The notes beneath the pieces were generated by a model. It did no database searches, was not told the origin of the DNA, and saw nothing but the letters and a program-made list of their open reading frames with translations. A DNA stretch of 64,000 bases, from assembly GCF_000696425.1 (NCBI RefSeq), contig NW_007726576.1, positions 538,522 through 602,521 of the forward strand. The letters run 5' to 3'. A program made the position numbers and the translations under genes. Positions 6,047 through 63,685 of the stretch are shown piece by piece. How positions within the stretch are numbered: position 1 is the stretch's first letter; each line of letters begins with the position of its first letter. Origin of the DNA: Galeopterus variegatus. Lineage: Eukaryota.

Positions 6047-6112
6047 TTTTTGGCAGCTGACTGGTACAGGGATCGAACCTTGGACCTTGGTGTTATCAAC
6101 TGGACTAAGGAG
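6047..6112 (-). mobile_element. t-SINE monomer fragment
   Basis: TTTTTGGCAGCTGACTGGTACAGGGATCGAACCTTGGACCTTGGTGTTATCAAC is the rc of the 3' half of the Ile-tRNA-like unit. 5' part missing. Confidence 0.5.
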
Positions 6113-7640: not shown

Positions 7641-7867
7641 TTTTTTTTTTTTTCCTTTTTGTCTTTTTTCGTGACCGGCAACGGATCACAACCCTCAGTG
7701 TCGCGCCCGTACCGGACCGGGACCGGCAACGGGATCGCAACCCTCGGTGTCGCGCTCGCACCTCGCTCAGTGAGCGGCCGGTCTGTATGTGGGATCTGAA
7801 CCCTCGGCGGGAGCCCCACCGCGCTCCTAAGCGGTGCACTGTAGCAGTGCGCCACTGGGCCGGCCCC
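7641..7867 (-). mobile_element. t-SINE trimer, TSD AAAGACCTGTCTT
   Basis: Full trimer in reverse orientation. Direct repeat AAAGACCTGTCTT at 7628-7640 and 7868-7880. Confidence 0.9.
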
Positions 7868-17445: not shown

Positions 17446-19846
17446 GTCTCACCACCCTGAGGCTATTAAACAGTGGATGGCTGAGAAGCAGGGCCAGGTG
17501 TTCCTACAGATACAGGTCACCTGGCCTGTGCTACTCAGGCCCCGGGTTCCACAGAGCAGGGACCTACAGCATGCTCGCTCATCCCTGGGCAGATGCTCAC
17601 ACACTGCCCTTCAAAGGGTGCTTACCCATGGCTCTCCCAGGATAATCCTGCCCTCAAGGGGCATTACTGGTTGTTACACCGGGAAGCAGATGCTAGTGTA
17701 CCTGGTATAGAGGGCAGGGACACTGCTGAACACCCGGTGGTGCTGGACAGGCCACAGTGTGACAGTGAGGGCAAGAAGCCCCGTTGGAACGACTAGATCC
17801 CAACAATGATGTTCCAGGGCAGTTTCTTGTACCCTTGCGCTCCGGTAATGACCAATTTTACATACTTTCTCCCGAGATGAAAAGGCTTTTATTTTGTTTC
17901 AACTTCTGAAAATCTTTCCCGTTTATTTCTTCTAAACCTCAATAAAACTAATACAATACACAAAATCCTTAAAGCAATTAAAATACTGCTTTTCAGCAAC
18001 AAGTACCTAAATAAGTAAAACAAATTACAGATATCACTAGTCTTATCTAACTTAGACACTAGTTACACAAGCTCTGAGTCTCTTCTCAAGGAAGAAACGA
18101 CCCACTCCCCGAGCACCCTGGCTCCCTCCCAGGCCCCTCTGTGCCCGCTGTGACTTGACACAGACGCCTCCTGCCCCCAGCCCTTGCTTGCCCTTCTGAG
18201 CCACCGCCTCCCCTCATCTTTCTCCTGCTTCTCTTTCCCACGCAGGCTCCTTCCGTCCTTGGCCTTCCCTCTTTCTCGGCCTATGGCTAGAGTCACTGTA
18301 CCCTAGGCTGCCGACCCCCAGATCTGAGTCTCCAGTCCACACCCTCCCCTGAGCTCAACCCCCTAAGTGAGATGCCTCCCGAGCATTCCAGCTCAAAGGC
18401 CACATCTGCACAGCAGAGCACCCAGCTCCCTGCTCAACCTGCTGCTACTCCTTACCTTAGAAACAAGGCGACTGAGCATCAGCTTGGTCGCCACATTTTG
18501 TGAGTTCCACCACCTAAGAAGCCATTGAATCTACCCACTTCTTTCCCTCTGTCACCAATCTAGGCACGGATGACTATAATTTCACTCTATTTTAAGAGCC
18601 TCCCTACACATCTGCAAAGTGCCCTTCTCGCCAGTCCATCCCCCTACTGTACACTAAGGAACATTCAAACGAACCACCCTATAAGCTGATTCTTTGTCCA
18701 GCCTAACCTCTTGGTGGCTCCCAACTGCCCTCAGGACAAGCTCCCGGTTCCTTAGCATGCTGTAGAGAGTTTCTGTGCGCCCCCCTTACGCTCCAGAGGT
18801 AACAAGTGTCTGCTGTTCAGAACGCACCTGTAACTCCTCGCTGAGAGGATGCTCGGAGGTGCCACCTCTGCTCTGAACATGTGGCAATAGCAGAAGCACA
18901 TAAAGGACATTAAAAAAATTTTAAAGTACATTTTAAAGATTCAAAGCTCAGGCTTCTGAACAAAATATTTCCATGAACCAGAAATGAGACAGAAGCATAA
19001 AGCAGTGATGACGGCTTAGACCTGAGTTTGCAGGAATTTGCAGGTCTGGGCCCTCAGAGTGACAGGGAAGAAGGGAGGACCCAGCGCCAGGCCCACGCAG
19101 AGCTGGGCCGCGCCCCTTTGCTTACCCAGGACAGCGGCTGGCAGCAGGAATTGCAGACAAATCCCTGCTGGGGGCAGTGGCTTACATAAAGGTGCATCCT
19201 GGGGGGAAGGTGGGAAGACAGAGCCATGTTACCCCCCGCCCCCCGCCCCATTGCAGCCGAGTGTCTGGATCTGCTGCATCCTAACGGCATCTTGACCCAG
19301 GAACCTGGAACTGCCACAGAGGAATGGGTGGCAAGGCCAGGGCCCCACAAGACAAATGTGAAACTGCTCAACAGGGAGGGGAAATAACAGGGTGCTGGGG
19401 GGGGGGCCTCCAACAACCTTCTCCTCAAAATGTATCTGCAAACCACAATTCCACAACACACACAGAAGTCAGAGTCTAAGGAGACACACGCACCACCATG
19501 AAATGGTAATGAGCACACCAACAGCACTCCGAGGTCTCTGTCCCACTCCAGCTCTGCTGATGCCCCCCTGGCCCCCCACCCCCAAGTGCATGTCCTTTCA
19601 GGACACAGCTCGCCACCTGTTACATCCACTCTCGGACTGGCCCTAGGTGCCCACCCAAGCGCTCCTTGGGCCTTGCTGCCCTGCCTCCCTGGTCTGCGGG
19701 TCGCTGGAGTCCAAGGACCATCTTGGAGCCCAAGGACCATCTTGCCCCACGCTGTGCCCAGTCCCCAGCACGGGGCAGCAGTGGCAGTGCCAACATGAAC
19801 ACCTGCTGAGTGACTGAAGAGACAGGTGACCTGTGGGAGGGTTTAC

Positions 19847-19933
19847 CTTCATCAATGCAGTTTCACCATTGCTCTGCTGGACATTCACAAAAGCTCCTGC
19901 TTCCAAAAGAATAGCCACTGTTGTTAGAAAGTT
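19847..19933 (-). CDS. MPHOSPH8: MPHOSPH8 exon 9 (ankyrin repeats)
   Basis: Acceptor CACTAG|AAC (AG at 19935-19934). Translation NFLTTVAILLEAGAFVNVQQSNGETALMK (29 codons). Donor AAG|GTAAAC (GT at 19846-19845). Confidence 0.92.
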
Positions 19934-23915: not shown

Positions 23916-24146
23916 TTTTTTTTTTTTCCTTTTTGTCTTTTTTCGTGACCGGCAACGGATCGCAACCCTCAGTGTCACGCCCGTACCAGACCGGGACCGG
24001 CCACGGGATCGCAACCCTCGGTGTTGTGCCCACACCTCGCTCAGCCAGTGAGCGGCCGGCCTGTATGTGGGATCCGAACCCTCGGCGGGAGCGCCACCAC
24101 ACTTCCCAAGCGGCGCACTGTAGCAGTGTGCCACCGGGCCGGCCCC
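23916..24146 (-). mobile_element. t-SINE trimer, TSD ATACCCTTTCC
   Basis: Full trimer in reverse orientation. Direct repeat ATACCCTTTCC at 23905-23915 and 24147-24157. Confidence 0.9.
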
Positions 24147-27720: not shown

Positions 27721-27969
27721 CTAGTAAAAAAACATTAAAATTGATGGCAAGTATGAGTCACAAATTTCTCTTGTAATCAAAAGAAAATCTGGGTTAGTGT
27801 TAAAGAAATAGGTATCACCTTAATTTTTACTAGTATTTTGCACGATCAGATTTACCATCGAAGCCACAACGTCTGGTCTTTCAACTGGTCTTTTCTGTTG
27901 CTGCTACTCAACATTTAGAAAGGATGTTCACAGTGAATGGCTACTCATCAGGTGTTCTGAATCACTCAC

Positions 27970-28190
27970 CTGTAGTTGTGGCAAAGGCCTGCTGAGGATG
28001 GTGGGCCTCAGAATGAGACCCACCTGGTCATGCCACCCATCTCCTACTGCTAGATACACCAGACTGTCAACCACTGCACACTGTAGTTGTGGCAAAGGCC
28101 TGCTGAGGATGGTGGGCCTCAGAATGATACCCACCTGGTCATGCCACCCATCTCCTACTGCTAGATACACCAGACTGTCAACCACTGCAC
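27970..28190. repeat. tandem duplication, 2 x 111 bp (MPHOSPH8 intron 4)
   Basis: CTGTAGTTGTGGCAAAGGCCTGCTGAGGATGGTGGGCCTCAGAATGA(G/T)ACCCACCTGGTCATGCCACCCATCTCCTACTGCTAGATACACCAGACTGTCAACCACTGCAC twice, about 98 percent identical. Confidence 0.85.
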
Positions 28191-29379
28191 CCTTAGTTTG
28201 TATAGATGTGATTTCTGGTGGTGAGGGGGAGAAATAGCAGGTGCCTGAGCACCAACAATGCACCTGGTAAAACTGTACCTGATGCCACCAGCTTTTAAGT
28301 GAATAATAGTGGGAAGAAAACTGGCAAAGCTCCAGACTTGTCATAGGAAATAATCCAAAAAAGAAAACGCTATTAGGAAGAATTGTATTATAAACTCCAG
28401 GTACATAGTAGACAGATTTTATTAGCAAGGGATATTGAAAACCGGACTCCCAGTGAGTACCATTATAAATGGGACAAACAGTAGTTCCATTTAAGGCATA
28501 CTGGGTCACAGTAAAAGTGTGCCTTCAATTGACATACGAGACGCCAGGAATAAGAAAAAGTTAACGAACCAGGTCCAATTTTGCAATATTTTGAATCACT
28601 CTTTGAAGAATAGCAGGGGTTTAAAATGTTTGTATTATTTTGAACAGATATGCTCTTTCACTTACAGTAACTTACGCACGACCCACTGGAACAGCAACTG
28701 TTCCTTCCCAGCTTCAACTACCTGCTTCTACCTTCAAGCCTCGCTCAGCTGAGAAATAAAATCTACTATCAGTATTACTTCAAATACATACAGCTTTTGG
28801 GAGAAAACCCAGGGGAAATTATCCACCTCTTAGAAACACTGCTTCCAAGAGAATGTGTGTTCCAAGTACTTTTGGTACATAAACTATTTATCTACTGGAG
28901 CTTATTCAAACACCATACGGTGATTTTTGAAATGAAGCAGTTGTTTCAGTACTGACATGTGTTATGGATTCTCAATTATGGTATATCTTGAAGTGATCCA
29001 AAATGTGTATTCAACATTATACTTGTGTTGGTACAAATGACACAGAGTAAAATACAATGAATATATTAAGCAAGTCTGTTTTATTTAGCATGCACTATAA
29101 AAAAGACACATTTACTTTTCTGCCATAACTAATTTCTTGTCTAATTCTAACTTACTCCATCAGCATACTGAAAAGGAGGAAAAACTAATTACATAATTAC
29201 ATAAGTTGTTATATAATAAATTTACATAACTGGTTAAACAAAGGCTCTAAATTCCCCAGTGAATAAAATTTTCCAGTTCTATGACATAGCAGGTTAGAAA
29301 AGACTGTCTTATAGTAAATTAATTTCTTTGCATAAAAGATGGTACTGTAAATGGTTAAAATGTTAGTATTTACACTCAC

Positions 29380-29479: not shown

Positions 29480-30739
29480 CTGAAAAAGACATATGTAAGA
29501 CCCTGAACGAGAATGGATAAAAGGCTGGTATTGTCTATTTGAAAACTGGAAAACACCGGTTCCTGGTGTCAATGACTGCCTTTATAAACTGTGGCACATG
29601 GCCAGAGATCATTAAGTTTTTTCGCATAAACTGCTTCCTCAATCAAGGTTATCCTTCAATCACATGATAATTTCTAAAACATCAAATCCAATTTAATATA
29701 AAAAATAATCTCCCCCCAAATCTCACCTATAGTCTTACTGATCACACACGACTATTTTTATTTCTCCATGCTCCCCCTTCTGAACTTGTCACTTTGCATA
29801 CATAATTTTTAAAAATTCATTTTCTTTATTTACACTGCATAGATATTTTTACATGGCAGTGTTCATATGTATGTATGGTATTCTTCTCCACCCCATTTTC
29901 TAAACTTTCCTGGTTTTGCTACAATGATGTCATAATTAATATTTCAATGGCTATAACAGTCCCCAGGTTGCCACATCAATATTTTCTTAACCATCTCCCC
30001 CATGGCTAGAGGGTTAGACTGTCATCAGCTGTTCACTACTGAAGATAATACTGCCAAATCCATCTTTGTATACACAACTTTTTTCATCCTTTTAAAATGG
30101 TTTACTTAAGAAAAATTCCCAAAACTGGGAATAATGGATGAAAAAAAAATTATCTTTTCTTATGGTCTGGTCCTTGATAAACAATGCATATAAGAATACT
30201 TTCATAATTTGAAAAATATTTCCATTTTGAAAAAACACATACCAGTGTTTTTATAATAATGAGAGAAACTATTAAATATGCTTTTGTAAGAATTAAAAGA
30301 CTTGTAATGTTAATGCATTTTGTATAATATTAAGTAAAAAGTGGTTTATTCTTAAGACAATGGAGGGAACATACCAAGAACAATGTGAAAACCTAATAAA
30401 ATATGCTGATGAAGCAATAAGCCTGAGTACACAACGCTGCAGATCACCTGAGTAACCCTAAAAGGACATGCTGACTTTTGCACATAAATTAGCCCTCAAT
30501 TTTCTAGTTGTAGTCAGTGTAAAAGGCAACCAGCTGCAGGCAGAGAGAAGCTGGTAGTCCCCTGGCTGAGGAGCTCAGCCTTTACAGCTGTCCACGCTTA
30601 GCCACACTATTCAGCACCCCCCTGATGATGCAAACACTGTCAGTTTGACCGTTTCCTTTTCATCGCTTGTGACACTTGTGGCCCACTCAGAACAGCACTA
30701 GCCCGCCGCACCCTGCGAGGCTGCCCCCGCGGCCCTTAC

Positions 30740-31591
30740 CTCCTCCGTGCAGCCACCGGACCTGAGCCCGAGGCCCCTCTCTTCCCCGCCCGGTCGCCAG
30801 CCCTTCTGCGGCGTCTGGGCAGACACAGGTGTCGGCTTATCTACCTCGGGGGTGTTTCCGCCTCTGTCTTGACCCCTTTGCTTTTTAGGCACAGTTTTCC
30901 TCTCTAAGAAAGAGTTCTTGTTTCCCAGCTTCCTGCCCTCCTTGGGGTCCTCGGGCTTCCTCGGCGCCTTCTTCTTCCTCTTGGCTCTGAGGTGCGCAGG
31001 CTCCTCCGCACCCGCGCCCGCCGGCGGCTCCTCAGCTGCGCGGTCCTCGCGGGCCTCCTGCCCGGCTCGCTCTTCTGCGCTTTGAACTTTCTGTTGCTCT
31101 TCTCGGATATCAGAGTGTAAGTCTTCACTGTCATCTTCTTGAAAAGGGGAATCATTAAGCACACTTGATTCAGATTCCAACTGAGAGTCAACGCATTTCT
31201 CTTTTTTTGTTTTTCTGTTTTCTTTGGGATCTTCTCTTTTAATCTTTAAATCTCTTATTTCACCCTTTTTAACTTTCTTTAATTCCTTACTTTCTTTTAT
31301 TTCATCTTTCTTGGGCTTTTTGGATTCCTTTAATTCTTCTTTGGCTTCCAAAATTCTTTTCTTTGTCCTTAGATCAAAAACTAAGCTTTCGGAGGTGCCT
31401 TCCAGGTCTGGTTTGGACTTATCTTTTGGCTTCCCAGTCTTTGCTTTTTTCTTTTTCAGATCATCTGGGCTTTTCTCTTCTCTATGCCTCAATTTTTTCT
31501 TTTTCTTCTTTGGAGAAGTATCTTCTTTTGTCTCACTTTGCTGATCACTATCAGAGTTTGCCTCAAATATGTCATTATTTAAGGATAGTCT
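30740..31591 (-). CDS. MPHOSPH8: MPHOSPH8 exon 3: large K/E/S-rich low-complexity exon (852 nt)
   Basis: Acceptor TATAG|AGA (AG at 31593-31592). Translation RLSLNNDIFEANSDSDQQSETKEDTSPKKKKKKLRHREEKSPDDLKKKKAKTGKPKDKSKPDLEGTSESLVFDLRTKKRILEAKEELKESKKPKKDEIKESKELKKVKKGEIRDLKIKREDPKENRKTKKEK...KTVPKKQRGQDRGG...PVSAQTPQKGWRPGGEERGLGLRSGGCTEE. Donor GAG|GTAAGG (GT at 30739-30738). 284 codons in phase 0, same frame as the 264-aa track ORF 30698..31492. Near-identical to the MPP8 disordered region as recalled. Confidence 0.9.
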
Positions 31592-32462: not shown

Positions 32463-34745
32463 CCTTACAGGCATACCATGTGCATTCCTCTTCACTGATA
32501 GTGAGTTTTTACACATCGAAGGTTTGTGGCAACCCTGTGTAGAACTAATCTACCAGCATTATTTTCCCAACAGCATGTGCTCACTTCGTGTTTCTGTGTC
32601 ATATTTTGGTAATTCTTGCAATAGTTTTCACTTTTCCATTATTATTACATCTGTTACGGTGCTCTGTGATCAGTGATCTGTGATGCTGCTACCATAATTG
32701 TTTTGGGCACCACAAGCCACACCCACACAATACGCAAACTTCATAAATGATGTGCGTGTTCTGACTGCTGCACCGACCGGTTGTTCATCTCTCCCCCTCT
32801 CCTCAGGCCTCCCTATTCCCAAATACAATACTGAAATTGGGCCAATTAATCCTACAATGGCCTTTAAGTGTTCAAGTGATTTTAAGACAAAGCTGGAAAT
32901 GATTAAGCTCAGTGCTGAAGGCATGTCAGAAGCCAAGACAGGCCAAAAGCAAGGCCTCTTGCTCCAAACAGCCAAGTTATGAGTGCAAAGGGAAAGTTCT
33001 CGAAGGAAATTAGAAGTGCTCCCCAGGAAACACACGAATGACAAGAAGCCAAGCAGCCTCATTGCTGATGTGGAGAAAGGGCTAGCAGTCTGGACAGAGA
33101 TCAAACCAGCCACAACATTCCCTTAAGCCAAAGCCAGACCCAGGGCACGGGTCCCAGCTCCCTTCAATTCTGCAAAGGCTGAGAGAGGCGAGGAGGCTGC
33201 AGAAGAAAAGTCTGAAGCCAGCAGAGGTTGGCATATGAGGTCTAAGGAAAGAGGCTGTGTCCATAGCATAAAAGCTCAAGGTGGGGCCGGCCCGGTGGCG
33301 CACTGCGCTAGTGTGCCGCTTGGGAAGCACGGAGGCGCTCCCGCCGAGGGTTCGGATCCCACATGCAGACCGGTTCCCGCTCACTGGCTGAGCGAGGCGT
33401 GGGGGCAACACCGAGGGTTGCAATCCCGTTGCCGGTCCCGGTCCGGTACGGGGGCGACACTGAGGGTTGCGATCCGTTGCAGGAAATTAGAAGTGCTGCC
33501 CCAGGAAACACATCAAGGACAAGAAGCCAAGCAGCCTCATTGCTGATGTTGAGAAAGTGCTAGCGGTCTAGAGAGATCAAACCAGCCACAACATTCCCTT
33601 AAGCCAAAGCCTGACCCAGGGCACAGGCCTCAGCTCCCTTCAATTCTGTGAAGGCTGAGAGAGGCGAGGAGGCTGCAGAAGAAAAGTCTGAAGCCAGCAG
33701 AGGTTGGCGCATGAGGTCTAAGGAAAGAGGCTGTGTCTATAGCACAAAAGCTCAAGGTGGAGAGTGGATGCCGATGTGGAAGCCACAGCAGGTTATCCAG
33801 GATCTAGCTAAGCTCAACCACAGATTTGCAGTGTAGACCTAACAGCCTTCTATTGGAAGAAGATCTGGGCAGAGAAAACTGAAAACCTTCTGGAAAGGAT
33901 GCACCACTCTAGATGCCGTTAAGAACATTTGTGAGTCATGGGAGAAGGTCGAAATATGAACATTAACAGGAGTTTAGAAGAATTTGATTCCAACCCTTGC
34001 AGATGACTTTGAAGGGCTCAAGACTTTCGTAGAGGAAGTAACTGCTGATGTGGCGGAAACAGCAAGAGAATCAGAATTAGAAGTGGAGCCTGGAGATGGG
34101 ACCGAACTGCTGCAATCTCGTGATAAAACTTTAACAGATGAGGAGTTGCTTCTTCTAGAGGAGCAAAGAAGGTGGTTTCTTGATGTGGAATCTACTCCTG
34201 CTGAAGATGCTGTGAACAATGTTGAAATGACAGCAAAAGATTTAAGGTATTACATAAACAGTTGATAAAGCAGCAGCAGGGTTGGAGAGAACTGATTGCA
34301 ATTTTGCAAGAAGTTCTCCTGTGGGTAAAACACCATCAAACAACACTGTATGCATCAGAGAAATCTTTTGTTAAACCAAGAGTCCATTGATGTGGCAAAC
34401 TTCACTGTTGTCTTATTTTAAGAAACTGCCACAGCCACCCCAGCCTTCAGCAACCACCACCCTGATCAGTCAGCAGCCAGGGGCACCAAGGCAAGACCCT
34501 CCACCAGCAAAAAGATTACGACTTGCTGAAGGCTCAGCTGATTGTTAGCATTTTTAAGCAATAAAGTATTTTCTAATTAAGGTATGTGCATTATGTTTTT
34601 AGACATAATCCTATTGCACATTTTAATAGACTACAGTAAACATAACTTTTATATGCACTGGGAAACAGAAAAATTTGTGTGGCTTCCTTTATGGTGGTGG
34701 TCTGAAACTGAACCTGCAATCTCTGGGGTATGCCTGTACTTGTTG
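32463..34745 (+). mobile_element. Tigger1-like (pogo/Tc1-mariner superfamily) DNA transposon remnant, internally deleted, carrying a secondary SINE insertion
   Basis: Decayed transposase reading frames: ...KCSSDFKTKLEMIKLSAEGMSEAKTGQKQGLLLQTAKL..., [30 protein letters not shown]..., LYWKK..., FWKGCTTLDAVKNICESWEKV..., [91 protein letters not shown]..., [45 protein letters not shown]. Terminal CAGGCATACC-like ends at about 32463 and 34745 (rc). The middle of the transposase is missing. Confidence 0.65.
33284..33480 (+). mobile_element. t-SINE trimer, 3'-truncated, no poly-A, flanked by a 280-bp duplication
   Basis: GGCCGGCCCGGTGGCGCACTGCGCTAGTGTGCCGCTTGGGAAGCACGGAGGCGCTCCCGCCGAGGGTTCGGATCCCACATGCAGACCGGTTCCCGCTCACTGGCTGAGCGAGGCGTGGGGGCAACACCGAGGGTTGCAATCCCGTTGCCGGTCCCGGTCCGGTACGGGGGCGACACTGAGGGTTGCGATCCGTTGC, then an abrupt junction with no A-tail. 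Confidence 0.8.
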
Positions 34746-36230: not shown

Positions 36231-36888
36231 ACTTCTGGTCCCAACCACTTTGAATCAGGGATACTGAGCCTGTATAAAGGCTGACAACAAACTGTTAGGA
36301 AATACAAGTACTCAGAGAATATTGTTCTCAAGAGCCCTCTACTACAGACTCAAGAGCCCTTCTACTACAGAGACAGTTCTCAAATTCTAGCATGCACCAT
36401 GGTGTTCAGGGCTTCCCAAAACATTGCTGGCTGGCCTCGCCCCAGGGAAGGGGTGGGGGGCTTCCAAAATGGGGATGACTGATGCTCCTAGCCAGGATTC
36501 CACACTGTGAGAATGCCTGTACTAAAAAATGAGCTCTGGATAACCAAAAATGACTGGACAGACATCAACATAAAGACTGGTGGAAAGCATTATATATCTG
36601 CTTCTAGAATTAATTCTAGAATAGTTCTAATTAGAATCAATTAATAATTAATAATTCTAATAGAACTAATTCTAAAACTAATTCTAGACTGAATGTTGGT
36701 TATAAGAGAAAGAGTGTGGTATGTAATGACTAAATACTCTAACAATGTACAGTACATCTGCCAAAATAACAGAGAGGAATGTTGAGAAAATATTAAATGC
36801 ATAATATGCCGTTAGACAACAGGTATCACATTATATTAAGGAATTAATATTAACTTTTAAAAAACAACAACAAAAAAATCACAAGAAG

Positions 36889-37108
36889 GGCCGGCCTGGT
36901 GGCGCACTGGATAGTGCGCCGCTTGGGAAGCGCGGCAGCGCTCCCGCCCGAGGGTTCAGATCCCACATGCAGACCGGTTCCCGCTCCCTGGCTGAGCGAG
37001 GCGCGGGAGCAACACCGAGGGTTGCGATCCCGTTGCCGGTCCCCGGTCCGGTACGGGGGCAACACTGAGGGTTGCGATCCGTTGCCGGACACGGAAAAAG
37101 ACAAAAGA

Positions 37109-37145
<37 letters not shown>
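36889..37145 (+). mobile_element. t-SINE trimer, young: about 48-nt pure A tail, TSD CACAAGAAG
   Basis: Full-length trimer, nearly free of CpG decay. Uninterrupted A tract 37098-37145. Direct repeat (A)CACAAGAAG at 36878-36888 and 37146-37155. Confidence 0.92.
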
Positions 37146-37146
<1 letters not shown>

Positions 37147-37913
37147 ACAAGAAGTAAAATCACACATACCACAGTCTGAGTACTTTTAGTACACTGGCAA
37201 CCTGTCGTCTTACTCATTTTAATGGTCTCACAGGTAAAATAAACATATTATTTATTATCCAAAATTAGGACAACTTTGAAAATGAAACAGGATGCTAATA
37301 ATTACACCAAGACAACAGGTGTAAACCAGGACTGAGCCAGGCCAATCAACATATACAGTCCTCCTACTCTGTTTAAGTAACACCACAGTCTAGGGGAACA
37401 CTTACTGAAGCATACCTAACAGCTTTATCTTCACACCTTGTATATAATAGTTCAAAAGTGACTGATGATAACATTTGCCAAACAAGTATATATATGTAAA
37501 TGCACATATATACACTGATGAAGGAAAGAGGCCAGAAAAGGAGAACAAAAGAAAAAAGAACCACAGTGACTCCATTCTTTTTGAACTTGACTGACTTGTT
37601 CTCTTCTAGCCCAAGAAACGGACCTTCCATTAGAATTTATTGCTTGACAAACTCTTTACAGGGAATTTGTTGTCACCAACGTACCCATTACTTAGATAAA
37701 CACAGATGACACTGTTAGAGAAATCCTGGGATGGTTGTCAACCTGCTGTATTTTAAATAAATGGGAATTACTTAGGAGTTGAGTAACTTAGAGTATAAAT
37801 ACTGTAAAAGGCCTGAGAAACCATTACTCAAATCTCATAGTCAGATATCCGTTCCATCTTTATACAATGTTTAAATTTGTTTACTGCTTAGACTTTCCTG
37901 AACTCACACTATA

Positions 37914-38083
37914 TCTTTTTTTTTTTTTTAAAAGATGACCGGTAAGGGGATCTCAACCCTTGGCTTGGTGTTGTCAGCACCACGCTCAGCCAGTGAGCAA
38001 ACCGGCCATCCCTATATAGGATCCGAACCCGTGGCCTTGGTGTTATCAGCACTGCACTCTACCGAGTGAGCCACGGGCCGGCC
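37914..38083 (-). mobile_element. t-SINE dimer, young: perfect 17-bp TSD
   Basis: rc of GGCCGGCCCGTGGCTCACTCGGTAGAGTGCAGTGCTGATAACACCAAGGCCACGGGTTCGGATCCTATATAGGGATGGCCGGTTTGCTCACTGGCTGAGCGTGGTGCTGACAACACCAAGCCAAGGGTTGAGATCCCCTTACCGGTCATCTTTTAAAAAAA. Direct repeat TCTGAACTCACACTATA at 37896-37913 and 38084-38100. Confidence 0.92.
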
Positions 38084-38593
38084 TCTGAACTCACACTATA
38101 AAACCTCCTGGCCTTTTCTGCTTGTTGGGCAGACTTACTTCTCACATTGAGAGGTAGTCTCCCTGGTTTGCAAATCTAAATAAAAGCCTCATTTAAATTT
38201 CCTTACAGACAAAGGTGTTTACTTCGACAATATGTACAACACACACACATACCCAGTGTCACCTCCTTCCAGTGATCACCAGTGGAAACTACAAGGTTTC
38301 CCATAGTGCAACCATTATCAAAACACTTTTGGGAGGTTCACTCTTGCACTTTCAGAACCTATTTTGAGTCAAAAAGGAGGTGCCAATACAAATTATTTTC
38401 TTGTATGACATTACAAATTCCTATGAAGAAAATTCCAAAAGAAAAATTTCAAAACCATTTTGGGCCATGGCACTGTGGGAATAAATGCTTACTTCACAAA
38501 ATGTACACTCTTAAAAACAGCTATCCTGAGACAAACTTTAGAGGCAAAACTATGTCTTACCTGAGTAGTAGGTACAGGTGACTATTTTATAAC

Positions 38594-39014
38594 TTTTTTT
38601 TTTTTTTTTAAAGATGACCGGTAAGGGGATCTTAACCCTTGACTTGGTGCCCTTTTGTCTTTTTTACTGACCGGTAACGGGATTGCAACCCTCGGTGTCG
38701 CACCGGCACCGCGCTCAGCCAGTGAGCGGGAACCGGTCTCCACATGGGATCCGAACCCTCGGCCGGCCCAAATTTTTTTTTTGTCCTTTTCGAGACCGGC
38801 CGCACTGCGCTCAGCCAGTGAGCGGGAACCGGTCTCCACATGGGATCCGAACCCTCGGCCGGCCCAAATTTTTTTTTTGTCCTTTTCGAGACCGGCCGCA
38901 CTGCGCTCAGCCAGTGAGCTCACTGGCCATCCCTATATAGGATCCGAACCCACAGCGGGAGCGCTGCTGCGCTCCCAGTGCTGCACTCTCCCGAGTGCGC
39001 TATGGGCTCGGCCC
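38594..39014 (-). mobile_element. t-SINE pile-up: at least 3 head-to-tail elements with an internally duplicated ~110-bp unit
   Basis: Same-orientation array. It comprises a dimer 3' unit (38594-38653), a 2-unit element lacking the box-A region (38654-38770), a 110-bp monomer-like copy (38771-38880) and a CTATATAGGG-class element (38881-39014). The last two share an identical 55-bp 3' end including the tail AAATTTTTTTTTTTGTCCTTTTCGAGACCGGCCGCACTGCGCTCAGCCAGTGAGC. Outer TSD ATTTTATAA(C/T)TTTTT. Confidence 0.85.
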
Positions 39015-39966: not shown

Positions 39967-40067
39967 GGTGGCAGGTAAGCTCAGCTGATTAGAGCGTGGT
40001 GTTATAACACCAAGGTCAAGGGTTCAGATCCCATAACTGCCAGCCAACCAAAAAAAAAAAAAAAAAC
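39967..40067 (+). mobile_element. t-SINE monomer (tRNA-Ile-like), A18 tail
   Basis: GGTGGCAGGTAAGCTCAGCTGATTAGAGCGTGGTGTTATAACACCAAGGTCAAGGGTTCAGATCCCATAACTGCCAGCCAACC followed by A18. Confidence 0.8.
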
Positions 40068-45436: not shown

Positions 45437-45753
45437 AAGTGAAGTGTTTTGACATATGCCTTTTTTTTTCCCCTTTCATCTTACTCTTAACTTAAAGGAA
45501 AATATTATCCAACATTCATGTCCAAACTATACTTGTCTGTCAGCTGCATTGTAGGTTGGTTGCAGAAAGAAGAGTTGGGCAAAAATCACTGAAAAGTATT
45601 GTATGAAAACTCAATTGGCGATATGGATTTTACACAAAGAAATACTACATATTTTATTACTTGTAAATTATTTACTACAACATGCTTTATAACAATAAGA
45701 TTTATAACAAACTCATGTACATAAAAAAATAAGTATGAGATAAAACATGATAC

Positions 45754-45909
45754 CTGAATATCCTTCTTGATTGCTTTAGCTTTGTTCTCTGCCACTTTCT
45801 TTCTAAATTCCAGAAGAACTTCTTTACAGTCCTCCAGATGAACCTCAGGCTCCCAGGTGTCATCATCTGATGTATATCCTTTCCATCGAACTTTGTAAAG
45901 GATTTTACC
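45754..45909 (-). CDS. MPHOSPH8: MPHOSPH8 exon 2: chromodomain
   Basis: Acceptor cAG|GGT (AG at 45911-45910). 156 nt in phase 0: GKILYKVRWKGYTSDDDTWEPEVHLEDCKEVLLEFRKKVAENKAKAIKKDIQ, a canonical chromo domain. Donor CAG|GTATCA (GT at 45753-45752). Confidence 0.93.
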
Positions 45910-46182
45910 CTGTGATATGAATTAAAAACAGGCAAATAAAAGATATTACTGACATGATTAAATTTCCAAAAACACACACCTGCTGATAATATATGAAAGA
46001 ACCTGAGAAGTGCTTCTAAATGGAAATTCATATCACATGATAATGTATGTTCATTTCCTAAGGCAAGTAGCATAAGAAAAAACAGTATCACTGATCTATT
46101 TTTCATAAACTGAAGACTGAGGTCTTTTTCTGACTATATAAAGCAATATCCAAAAAGTAATGAAACACAGGAAGAAATAAGG

Positions 46183-47430: not shown

Positions 47431-47821
47431 ATTAAGCATTTCCATTTACAATAGCATCTAAAAGAATAAAATACCTAGGAATAAATTTAACCAAGGAGGT
47501 GGAAGACATAAACTAAAAACTATAAAACACTGCTAAAAGAAATTAAATAAATGGAAAGATATCCTGTGTTCTTAGGTAGGAAGACTTAATGTTGTTAATA
47601 TGTCAACACCATCCAAAGTGATCTACAGATTCAATGCAATCCCTATCGAAATTCCAATAGCCTTATTTCCAGAAATAGAAAAGCCAATCCTTAAATTCAT
47701 ATGGAATTGCAAGAGGCCCTGAATAGCCAAAACAATCTTGAAAAAGAACAAAGCTGGAAGAGTCAAACTTCCTGATTTCAAAACTTACTACAAAGCTGCA
47801 GTAATTAAAACATTGTGGTAC

Positions 47822-48002
47822 TGGGCCGGTCCGTGGCTCACTCGGGAGAGTGTGGTGCTGATAACACCAAGGCCACAGGTTCGGATCCCATATAGGGATG
47901 GCCAGTTCGCTCACTGGGTGAGCGTGGTGCTGACAAACACCAAGTCAAGGGTTAAGATCCCCACACCGGTCATCTTTAAAAAACAACAACAACAACAAAA
48001 AA
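47822..48002 (+). mobile_element. t-SINE dimer inserted in L1, TSD GTGTGGTACTG
   Basis: GGGCCGGTCCGTGGCTCACTCGGGAGAGTGTGGTGCTGATAACACCAAGGCCACAGGTTCGGATCCCATATAGGGATGGCCAGTTCGCTCACTGGGTGAGCGTGGTGCTGACAAACACCAAGTCAAGGGTTAAGATCCCCACACCGGTCATCTTTAAAAAA(CAA)n. Flanked by (T/A)GTGTGGTACTG repeats. Confidence 0.9.
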
Positions 48003-48453
48003 ACAGTGTGGTACTGAAAAACACCGATATAGAGAGTCCAGAGATAAACCCATACATCTAAGGCCAATTGATTTTTGAAAATGGTTCGAAGTCCACTCAA
48101 TAGGGAAACAAACTGTGCTGGGACAACCGGACTTCCAACATGCAAACAAACAAAGTTGGACCCCAACTTCATACCATGTAAAAATAATTGACTAAAAAAG
48201 GATCAAAGAGTTAAATTTAAGAGCTAAACCCATAAAATTCTTAAAAGAAAACACTGGAGTAAATCTTTAGACTTTGGATGGCTATGGATTCTTGGATGTG
48301 ATATCAAAAGCACAAACAAAAGAAAAAAAAAAGATAAATTGTACTTTATCAAAATTAAAAACGTATGTGCATCAAAGGACGTTACCAACAAAGTAAACAG
48401 ATAACCCACAGAATGGGAGAAAATATTTGCACATTAAAAATATCTGATAAAGC

Positions 48454-48629: not shown

Positions 48630-48712
48630 AGGTTGGCTGTTTAGCTCAGTTGGTTCTAACTGAGAACCTTAGAACACCAAGGTCAGCCACCTTCAAAAAA
48701 AACAAAAAACAA
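48630..48712 (+). mobile_element. t-SINE monomer (degenerate)
   Basis: GCAGGTTGGCTGTTTAGCTCAGTTGGTTCTAACTGAGAACCTTAGAACACCAAGGTCAGCCACC with an A-rich tail. Confidence 0.6.
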
Positions 48713-50762
48713 GTATCTAATAAGGGATTAATATCCAGAATATATGAACAACTACAATTCACCAACAAGACAGACAATCGAATTCAAAAGTGGGCAAAGG
48801 ACTTGAACAGACATTTCTTCAGAGAAGATACACAAACTGCCAATAAGCACATGAAAAGATGCTCAACATCATTACTCCTTAGGGAAATGCAAATCAAATC
48901 ACAAAATGAGATACCACTCTTCGCCTGTTACATGGCTATTAAAAAAACGCCAATGGAAAACAATAACAGTTGGTAACGATGTGGAGAAACTGGAACCTTC
49001 TTACATTGGTGCTAGGAATGTAAAATGGCACAGCTACTGTGGAAAACTGTCAGGCAGTTCCTCAAAAAGTTAAACATAAAATCAACCTATGACCCAGCAA
49101 TTCCACACGGAGGTATATACCCCCAAAGAATTGAAAACACAGACTCAAACAGGTATCTGTATACCAATGTTCACTGCAGCATTATTCACAATAGCCAAAA
49201 GGTGAAAGCAACCCAAGTGCCCATAAGTGGATAAACCAATAAAATGTGATATATACATACAATGAAATATTATTCAGCCTTGAAAAGAAAGAAAATCCTT
49301 ACGCATGTCACAACATAGATGAAACTTAAAAGTATTACGCTAAGTGAAATAAGCCAGACACAAAACACATATTTATGATTCCACTTAGACGAGGTGCCTA
49401 GAACAGGCAAATTTACTGAGACAAAGTAGATTAGAGGTTATCAGGGACTGGGGGGAGAGGTGAAATGGGGAGTTACTGTTTCATGGTTACAAAGTCTGTG
49501 CAATGATTTTAAAAAAGGTTTTGGATATGGTAATGGTTGCACAACATTGCGAATGTAATTAATGCCACTGAATTTTACATTTAAAAATGATTAAAATGGC
49601 TAATTTTATGATATATGTATAATTATAATAAAAATATCCTTTACCTATTGTGTCTTTTGCCCATTTCATTGCTCATTTATGAGACTTTTTCTTTTTCATA
49701 CTTATGGCTATTAAATCTTTGTCATATATATTCCAAATTTTTGCTTAAATCCCAACAAGCAAGAACATATCTGCAACATGGTTGTCTGCATGAACTGCAG
49801 AGCACCATTCCAGCTATACACTTAACATCTGCCTGATTTTATTCATACTTCTACCATGGCAATAAACCTTCCCAGCTGAGTGCCAAGAACTGCTGCCTCC
49901 CACTTTACCCTTCAGTCATACCTACACCGCCCTCCAATCATTCTGCAGTGTGTAGAATGACCAAGTATCAATATTTAGTAGTATTAGGAACAAAGAAATA
50001 ATGGAAAATCTTAAAATCTTAACTTTTAAAGATACTCCTGAAAATCCTTAAAATTTAAAAATAACACTCGTACAGTCATGCACCCCACAACAACTCTTCA
50101 GTCAATGATGAAACACATATACAATGGTGGTCCCATAAGATTATAATGGAGCTGGAGGTGTGTAGTGGGCTATACCACCATTTAGGTTTGTGAAAGTACA
50201 CTCCATGATGTTCACATAAATATGAAATCACCTAAGGACGTGTTTATCAGAAAGTCATTAAGCAACACAAAACTGTAGTTTAAGAGGACATCAATACAGT
50301 TTTACGGCTCAGCTACATTAATTGGGTCAGGGATCAGTTGATTATATCAGTTAAGAATAAATGCATATTCTTTTTAGCAAAACTGTGTACAAAAGGAAAA
50401 CTATCATGTACAACTTTGTAAGAGCTTCTACGACGGTATAGTTTAAACCGAAGAAATTAAACAAAGGTGAGACAGCATAGTTGTTTTCTTAAACAACTAT
50501 GCTTCTTAGCCTGAATGAATGCGGGAAGAAAGAAAAAGAAATCTTAGTCGATAATATGCAGTATTGCCTGAAAGAGAGTAATATGCTTGGTCTTGGTAGA
50601 AACATCACATGAAGAGTTATATGTTTGTAGGAGAGTGTAGGAATATGCTAATTTCATCAATAACAGGTCACGAGAACAAATGACCCTTGTTTGTATGTGT
50701 TTATAAAAATAGTGGTAAATCTGTCATTCAATACACTGCTTTTAAAATAAACACTATTTTGT

Positions 50763-50838
50763 GGCCGGCCCATGGCTCACTTGAGAGAGTGTGGTGCTAA
50801 CAACACCAAGCCAAGGGTTAAGATCCCCTTTCCAGTCA

Positions 50839-50870
<32 letters not shown>
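50763..50870 (+). mobile_element. t-SINE monomer, A34 tail
   Basis: GGCCGGCCCATGGCTCACTTGAGAGAGTGTGGTGCTAACAACACCAAGCCAAGGGTTAAGATCCCCTTTCCAGTCATCTTT + A34. Confidence 0.8.
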
Positions 50871-50874
<4 letters not shown>

Positions 50875-51595: not shown

Positions 51596-51706
51596 GGGGC
51601 TAGCCAGTTAGCTCAGTTGGTTAGAGTGCAGTATTATAATACCAAGGTCAAGGGTTCAGATCCTCATACTGGCCAGCCACCAAAAAAAAAAAAAAAAAAA
51701 AAAAAC
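51596..51706 (+). mobile_element. t-SINE monomer (tRNA-Ile-like), A28 tail
   Basis: GGGGCTAGCCAGTTAGCTCAGTTGGTTAGAGTGCAGTATTATAATACCAAGGTCAAGGGTTCAGATCCTCATACTGGCCAGCCACC + A28. Confidence 0.85.
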
Positions 51707-55099: not shown

Positions 55100-56120
55100 G
55101 GCAGACGGGAGAACGGTTAGCGCCGAGGCGCGGCGTGACGACGAACCTCACGTGTGGCCGCGCGGCTACAATCATCTAACGCGCAGGGGAGAGACGGACA
55201 ACGGGAATTCCGCAAGATTTCAGAGCAGAGAACTGACCACGGTGTCGGGAAACACCGTCAGTGACGGCCGCGGAAGTCCTGCACAGCTGCCTGCACGCTC
55301 GCGCCATCCTCACACGCACGCCGCACACTGCTTCGTCCCTTCTGCCGAAGGGTCCTCTCTAACTTCTGGACGTGTCCTCCACAGACGCCGACCTAGGAGT
55401 CCACTGGGAAGCATCGTCCCGCCTCTCCCGAGACCCGCGCCAACGGTCGCGTCCACAATCGCGGGCGTTCCCAGCTCGGCCCTCCCCTCCCGCCCCCCCG
55501 CTCCAGGACCCCCGCGGACCCCCGCGCTTCACGTCCAGGACCTTCGCCGCCGCACACACGCCCTCGCCGGAAAACCCACGTACCCCCTCAGTCTTCACGT
55601 CCAGGATCTTCTCCACCTCGAATACGTTCTCCTCGTCCTCCTCGCTGTCCCTCACGGCCTCCGCTCCTTTTGCGGCTGCATCCTTTCGCCCCGATTCCTC
55701 TTCGGCTTCGGGCAACTCATCATTGCCGTCGCCACCTGACACAAGAACTGCGGTCACACTCGTTGCCTCCGCAACGGGAGCCACTGCCGCCATCGTAGGA
55801 GCTCCGCAAACTGCCAAAAAAAGCAGCTGCGACACACACTACGGCGGCGTGACCGGGCTGGGAGGGATACCGGCCAATGGCGGGCCCGAGATCGTGGAGT
55901 GACACGCACAGGAACCAATCATGTAAAGGCTGGCACGGCGGAGCCTACGGGAAGCGGGTGGGCGGGCCCCAGGACGCCTGGGGCGGAAGAACGTCGTCTG
56001 GGGGCGGGTGGAAGGGGTCGCGGGGTGGCGGGGCTGCCGGTCGCTCTGGAGAAGGGAGGAGAGCCCGGGAAGTCCTGGAGGGGCGGAGCGGGGCTCAGGC
56101 GCGCAGGGCGGAATGACAGG
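55100..56120 (-). promoter_or_regulatory. MPHOSPH8: CpG island / putative MPHOSPH8 core promoter and 5' UTR
   Basis: About 1 kb of very high GC with dense CpG dinucleotides, in contrast to the AT-rich flanks. It contains the exon-1 ATG. The TSS cannot be fixed from sequence alone but should lie within about 55800-56000. Confidence 0.6.
55584..55793 (-). CDS. MPHOSPH8: MPHOSPH8 exon 1 (coding part): acidic N-terminus
   Basis: Minus-strand ATG at 55793-55791. Translation MAAVAPVAEATSVTAVLVSGGDGNDELPEAEEESGRKDAAAKGAEAVRDSEEDEENVFEVEKILDVKTEG (70 codons), ending at donor GTACGTGGG (GT at 55583-55582). Lies inside a CpG island. The EDxxVFEVEKILDxKTEG motif matches the MPP8 N-terminus just before the chromodomain. 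Confidence 0.88.
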
Positions 56121-58547: not shown

Positions 58548-58635
58548 GCTGGCAGTTTAGTTCAGTTGGTTAGAGTACAGTGTTATAACACTAAGGTCAA
58601 GGGTTTGGATACCCTTACCAGCCAGCCACAAAAGG
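58548..58635 (+). mobile_element. t-SINE monomer in L1
   Basis: GGCTGGCAGTTTAGTTCAGTTGGTTAGAGTACAGTGTTATAACACTAAGGTCAAGGGTTTGGATACCCTTACCAGCCAGCCAC. Confidence 0.75.
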
Positions 58636-63591: not shown

Positions 63592-63685
63592 TTTTTTGGC
63601 GGCTGGCCGGTACAGGGATTGAACCCTGGACCTTGGCGTTATCAGCACCACGCTCTAACCAACTCAGCTCACTGGCCGTCCATGC
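63592..63685 (-). mobile_element. t-SINE monomer
   Basis: rc of GGACGGCCAGTGAGCTGAGTTGGTTAGAGCGTGGTGCTGATAACGCCAAGGTCCAGGGTTCAATCCCTGTACCGGCCAGCCGCCAAAAAATG. Confidence 0.75.

Follow-up and report, generated by a model that had tools for sequence, protein, structure and literature searches.

Two well-preserved tRNA-derived SINE insertions in an intron of MPHOSPH8 of the colugo Galeopterus variegatus, and their probable age

The stretch of Galeopterus variegatus DNA analysed here (64,000 nt of contig NW_007726576.1, positions 538,522 to 602,521; hereafter the window) has the composition of mammalian genomic DNA, with 40% GC and a CpG observed/expected ratio of 0.36. Searches by tblastn with MPHOSPH8 (M-phase phosphoprotein 8) proteins place this gene on the minus strand, its exons 1, 2 and 3 lying at about 55572-55835, 45727-45918 and 30698-31591, respectively. 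A 264-aa exon ORF of the gene shows at best 76% full-query identity to the M-phase phosphoprotein 8 of other mammals, and an exact-sequence look-up with it returned no identical record. An ankyrin-repeat exon ORF near 19643-19918 also lies in the MPHOSPH8 region of the window, and the GC-rich stretch at 54-56 kb may be the promoter CpG island. The two elements of interest, a trimer of tRNA-like units on the plus strand (E1, 36889-37145) and a dimer on the minus strand (E2, 37914-38084), are both located within MPHOSPH8 intron 2, E1 being antisense to the gene and E2 sense.

A search with E1 and E2 as queries recovered about 30 related tRNA-like loci, which together make up 5.7% of the 64-kb window. 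Monomers, dimers and trimers coexist among them, as do several diverged subfamilies. E1 and E2 are separated by 768 bp, in line with the 770 bp given in the earlier note on this DNA. For two given copies out of about 30 in 64 kb, the probability of being within 768 bp of each other is ~2.4%; as the pair was chosen after the fact, its proximity was given no weight as meaningful clustering. Exact 25-mers of both element types had no match in metagenome, prokaryote-genome or viral contigs. MPHOSPH8, whose product is a subunit of the HUSH complex and a silencer of L1, is a curious host for some 30 L1-dependent SINE copies.

E1 is GC-rich and consists of three units, and its description as a trimer at 36889-37145 is borne out. 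Unit 1 (36889-36975) is a diverged tRNA-like head that aligns at 52 of 75 positions with unit 1 of E2. It carries an A box, TGGCGCACTGG (36900-36910), with one mismatch to TRGCNNAGTGG, and a B box, GGTTCAGATCC (36953-36963), with one mismatch to GGTTCRANNCC. Unit 2 (36976-37038) is homologous to unit 2 of E2, the one that forms a cloverleaf in the dimer, with 51 of 59 positions identical (z = 14 against shuffles). Unit 3 (37039-37094) arose by duplication of unit 2 and is shorter by a 12-nt deletion; the two agree at 43 of 49 positions (z = 9.6). The Rfam tRNA model gives no match to E1 at E<=10, so that the tRNA ancestry of this element rests on its homology to E2-type units. The body of E1 (36889-37094) has a GC content of 0.70 and contains 25 CpGs, for a CpG observed/expected ratio of 0.99. 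No internal T4 was found in E1, and the first TTTT downstream (37184-37187, plus strand) lies 38 nt beyond the tail; if E1 is transcribed, Pol III would likely terminate there.

The A-rich tail of E1 totals 51 nt (37095-37145). It begins with a 15-nt interrupted stretch, AAAAAGACAAAAGAC (37095-37109), which is conserved in the subfamily, identical in the copy at 1192-1401 and approximate in the other trimers. The uninterrupted run that follows is 36 nt long (A36, 37110-37145), not the ~48 nt of pure A reported before, and is nonetheless the longest homopolymer in the window. The target-site duplication, CACAAGAAG, is found at 36880-36888 and 37146-37154 as a 9-bp repeat with no mismatch, and is thus perfect, as had been said. 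Since this 9-mer has three occurrences in the window, where 0.85 are expected, its count alone is uninformative, and the evidence for a duplication is its exact position at both junctions. The duplication may be extendable to 17 bp with one mismatch, as AAAAAAAT (36872-36879) resembles the end of the tail. The reconstructed empty site reads AACAACAAAAAAATCACAAGAAGTAAAATCACACATACC.

The proposed dimer at 37914-38083 likewise proved to hold two tRNA-like units, which score 40.6 and 18.1 bits with the Rfam tRNA model. Unit 1 of E2 (38008-38083), the tRNA-like head, accounts for the lower score, which is below threshold, and contains an A box, TGGCTCACTCG (38063-38073), with two mismatches and a B box, GGTTCGGATCC (38019-38029), with one. 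Unit 2 (37930-38007) is a complete tRNA-like cloverleaf according to Rfam (40.6 bits, for a gathering score of 29), to its predicted fold and to ARAGORN, which calls it tRNA-Val(GAC). Its 3' end is TCTTTT, with four T immediately ahead of the A tail, and two dimers related to E2 have TCTTT at that place. On the element strand, the tail (37914-37929) is composed of A14 (37916-37929) followed by GA (37914-37915). The body of E2 (37930-38083) contains 8 CpGs, with an observed/expected ratio of 0.62; with 25 CpGs in E1 and a ratio of 0.36 for the whole window, it is correct that both copies have kept many CpGs.

E2 is flanked by a perfect 16-bp duplication, CTGAACTCACACTATA, one copy of which (37898-37913, TATAGTGTGAGTTCAG on the element strand) is beside the tail and the other (38085-38100) beside the head; these are two matches in the window versus 0.01 expected. 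The earlier description of a perfect 17-bp duplication was therefore right about its perfection and one base too long, the T at 38084 facing a C at 37897. Position 38084, an A on the element strand, is an extra nucleotide between the duplication and the head. The reconstructed empty site reads GCTTAGACTTTCCTGAACTCACACTATAAAACCTCCTGGCC. Other low-threshold Rfam matches in the analysis, to non-tRNA models, were dismissed as chance matches, and a bacterial promoter/terminator scan was set aside as irrelevant to a mammalian Pol III element.

Internal Pol III boxes, together with an A tail and with duplications of 9-17 bp that abut the element exactly, are the signature of target-primed reverse transcription by the L1 ORF2 protein. 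Each of these marks is present here: the Pol III boxes are internal to both elements, and the A36 of E1 is associated with a 9-bp duplication and the A14 of E2 with one of 16 bp, both exact at the junctions. On the model of Alu and other SINEs that depend on L1, the L1 ORF2 protein would nick a T/A-rich target, the A tail would prime reverse transcription, and a staggered cleavage of the second strand would then give rise to the duplication, which measures 16 bp at E2 and 9 bp, or perhaps as much as 17, at E1. Among the 10 copies of the window for which a duplication was detected, the duplication mostly starts with an A-rich sequence, often after T/C (for example TATTTT/AAAAAG, GACGTG/AAAAAG or TCTGAC/AAGAAA), and most insertion sites resemble TT/AAAA, the consensus of the L1 endonuclease. 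The site of E1 fits this consensus if the duplication reaches into AAAAAAAT, and that of E2, TTT/TATAGT, is a weaker match. Tails, duplications, Pol III boxes and sites uphold the L1-mediated mobilisation of the earlier proposal; that this mobilisation is "recent or ongoing" is not supported as stated.

As judged from its sequence, E1 looks structurally able to serve as a source of new copies, with its two boxes, the lack of an internal T4 and its A36. Pol III transcripts initiated at E2 itself would probably lack a tail, because TCTTTT sits between the body and the tail of this element. Elsewhere in the window, ORFs 47738-48061 and 48650-48976 (plus strand) look like fragments of L1 ORF2, and a dimer t-SINE (47824-47977) is inserted in the former, with the duplication AAAACA(T/G)TGTGGTACTG. 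The L1 ORF2 sequence at about 47.7-49 kb is fragmentary, and the window showed no L1 ORF that is both long and intact.

The architecture of E1 and E2 matches that of the t-SINE/CYN family of dermopterans (colugos). Members of the family have bodies made of tRNA units only, occur as monomers, dimers and trimers in coexisting subfamilies, and have an Ile-like anticodon region. Likewise, the bodies of E1 and E2 are composed of tRNA-related units only, with no tRNA-unrelated region, and are followed by an A-rich tail; and the same three arrangements and several diverged subfamilies are found together in the window. Derivation from tRNA-Ile, another trait of the family, is possible for the window elements, whose anticodon-loop region reads Ile(GAT) or Val(GAC); the ARAGORN assignments of E2 unit 2, Val(GAC), and of a related monomer at 63604-63677, Ile(GAT), are one base apart. 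Within this comparison, the high GC content and divergence of the E1 units put them beyond the reach of the Rfam tRNA model. The defining papers on the family are those of Piskurek et al. (2003, Mol Biol Evol 20:1659) and of Schmitz and Zischler (2003, Mol Phylogenet Evol 28:341). The sequence of the SINE head had no match in literature full text, and the colugo genome paper makes no mention of these SINEs.

The closest functional analogue of E1 and E2 is Alu, which is similarly multimeric, rich in CpGs (about 25), dependent on L1 and transcribed by Pol III, and which has an A tail and 7-22 bp duplications. The length and purity of the tail, the decay of CpGs and the distance to a downstream T4 are shared criteria for the age of a copy or its capacity as a source. 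In contrast, Alu originates from 7SL RNA and not from a tRNA, and has no sequence similarity to either element. Another class to consider was that of the T+ SINEs (e.g., rodent B2), in which a Pol III terminator and AAUAAA are found ahead of the tail. While E2-type dimers do end in TCTTT(T) right before the A tail, AATAAA is absent from both E1 and E2; the signal pair is incomplete and this class was excluded. E1 and E2 are genuine and well preserved, but otherwise ordinary insertions of a SINE type that has been described before.

How long ago they were inserted was addressed by comparison with the other copies of the window. Its six full-length trimers are 85-95% identical to E1, the nearest relative being the copy at 1192-1401 (95.2%), which has the diagnostic insertions and the tail stretch in common with E1. 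Among the full-length copies of the window, E1 shows the least divergence of the trimers and E2 that of the dimers of its type. Private changes were polarised using the other window copies as outgroups, with subfamily ancestors inferred from two or three close copies and more distant ones, all from a single 64-kb window. E1 then has three private CpG transitions, C9T, G49A and G70A, and one transversion, A99C, a count that leaves out a small D-loop difference (36909-36912) that is not polarisable, and it retains 25 of the approximately 28 CpGs of its subfamily. The private changes of E2 are a transversion, G23T, and two CpG transitions, and 8 of about 10 CpGs are retained. E2 is 93.5% and 90.9% identical to the two other TCATCTTT dimers and is of a slightly different subfamily from these two; at three sites it has the same state as older dimers.

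Each copy thus has about 3-4 private substitutions, or ~2%, and the non-CpG private divergence is below 1% in both. With a colugo substitution rate of 2.2-4.5e-9 per site per year (PMC4198772), and CpG sites mutating 6-10 times faster (PMC4607524), E1 would be roughly 1-4 Myr old and E2 2-8 Myr old, provided that all the changes are post-insertion, these figures coming from tiny counts with a wide Poisson error and a several-fold uncertainty. Changes inherited from the source copy would lower these ages. In addition, because few copies define the ancestors, some of the private changes may instead mark a source lineage not represented here, in which case the copies would be younger. Both estimates are below the date of the split between Galeopterus and Cynocephalus, 11.3 Myr (PMC4980104).

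The marks from which the two insertions had been considered "very young" turned out to be common in the window. Perfect duplications of 12-17 bp are also present on more diverged copies. Those of copies that are 85-88% identical to E1 measure 16-17 bp, as at the trimers at 23940-24144 and 7666-7865, which are 85-86% identical to E1. The six trimers have kept 21-26 of 30 consensus CpGs (70-87%), with observed/expected ratios of 0.94-1.09; E1 is at the good end of this range and does not stand apart from the others. The three E2-type dimers have 7-8 CpGs each. As for the tails, two tRNA-like monomer SINEs that are devoid of CpGs end in uninterrupted runs of A29 (50844-50872, for the element at 50762-50872) and A24 (51682-51705, for the element at 51598-51705), and slippage may be what keeps these runs long. 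The tails of polymorphic human Alus are 13-62 bp in length, with a mean of about 29, and mostly uninterrupted (PMC4607524); the A36 of E1 is compatible with a very recent insertion, without being proof of one, and the A14 then GA of E2 falls at the low end of that range. Since duplications, CpGs and pure A tails each occur on older copies of the window, they are not specific to very young ones. With such non-discriminating markers and ~2% of private substitutions in each copy, neither "very young" nor "recent or ongoing" is supported as stated. Two loci that the earlier note had put forward as older copies for comparison, 6047-6112 and 48630-48712, are tRNA-like monomers too weak and degenerate to be used as yardsticks: the best local alignment of the first is to E2, with a score of 40, and the second has none. 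Full-length trimers and dimers were used as comparators instead.

We therefore favour, with a probability of about 0.8, the reading in which E1 and E2 are independent retrotransposed copies of tRNA-derived SINEs, made of tRNA-like units and an A-rich tail only, that are recent and not demonstrably new. That both copies, or at least E1, are much younger than 0.5 Myr, come from an active source and are possibly polymorphic, their differences having been present already in that source, seems unlikely to us. Such an age would fit with an A36 that is the longest homopolymer of the window and is within the 13-62 bp range of Alu (PMC4607524), with the perfect duplications of both elements, and with the 25 CpGs of E1 (observed/expected 0.99), its intact Pol III boxes and its lack of an internal terminator; the subfamily consensus is also thinly sampled, so that private changes could be inherited. 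However, CpG transitions represent three of the four private changes of E1 and two of the three of E2, which is what post-insertion decay predicts, E2 has a tail of merely A14 then GA, and the same marks (duplications, CpGs and runs of A24-A29) are borne by clearly older copies of the window. The related proposal that E1 is an active or very recently active GC-rich trimer source, whose insertion may vary among colugo individuals or lineages, is similarly doubtful. If true, a polymorphic source of this kind would be direct evidence of ongoing t-SINE retrotransposition, and the position of E1 inside MPHOSPH8 would be a coincidence.

At the other extreme, both copies could be old and predate the split of the colugo genera (>~11 Myr), with slow CpG loss, due for example to low germline methylation or to gene conversion between copies, and A runs maintained by slippage giving them a deceptively fresh appearance. 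The retention of 70-87% of consensus CpGs by six trimers at 85-95% identity to E1 and the survival of long pure A runs on CpG-free monomers both go in this direction. Nevertheless, we regard so great an age as very improbable: CpG decay is operating, as in every trimer the loss per CpG dinucleotide (13-30%) exceeds non-CpG substitution (2.7-6.3%); E1 and its nearest relative have derived subfamily characters in common, which places them at a tip of the family; and, in both elements, non-CpG private divergence stays under 1%. The wider significance of the two insertions is slight. SINE insertions that are restricted to a lineage and have clean duplications are used routinely as presence/absence markers, and E1 and E2 could be such markers within colugos. 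There is also a lesson of method in this SINE-dense window, namely that duplications, CpGs and A tails alone cannot identify very young insertions.

Several other repeats of the window deserve mention. About 600 bp beyond E2, within a cluster of minus-strand elements (38594-39013), are 2.2 tandem copies of a 96-bp unit with 99% identity (38706-38919). In this unit the end of one t-SINE, with its short A tail, is joined to the beginning of the following one, and the repeat seems to reflect a very recent tandem duplication in a nest of t-SINE fragments. Three tRNA-like monomers score above the gathering score of the Rfam tRNA model: 39970-40042 (plus strand, 37.3 bits), 58551-58624 (plus strand, 30.1 bits) and 63604-63677 (minus strand, 42.9 bits), the last being the one called tRNA-Ile(GAT) by ARAGORN. 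All three are followed by GCCA(C/A)C, and two of them then by a clear A run, which points to retroposed monomer SINEs or retro-copies of tRNAs and not to working tRNA genes.

In the region of about 32.6-34.3 kb, a further trimer (33285-33488, plus strand), 92% identical to E1, is without tail and duplication and ends in GCAGGAAATT; truncation or rearrangement may have affected this insertion. The adjoining ORF at 33984-34265 resembles the C-terminus of a Tigger/pogo-type transposase. Finally, the translation of the minus-strand ORF at 27928-28509 contains AVVDSLVYLAVGDGWHDQVG...LRPTILSRPLPQLQ twice and that of the minus-strand ORF at 1602-1982 contains ASPPRGRPQAGGGRERTKIL twice, so that each of these ORFs probably holds a tandem DNA duplication of about 100 bp.
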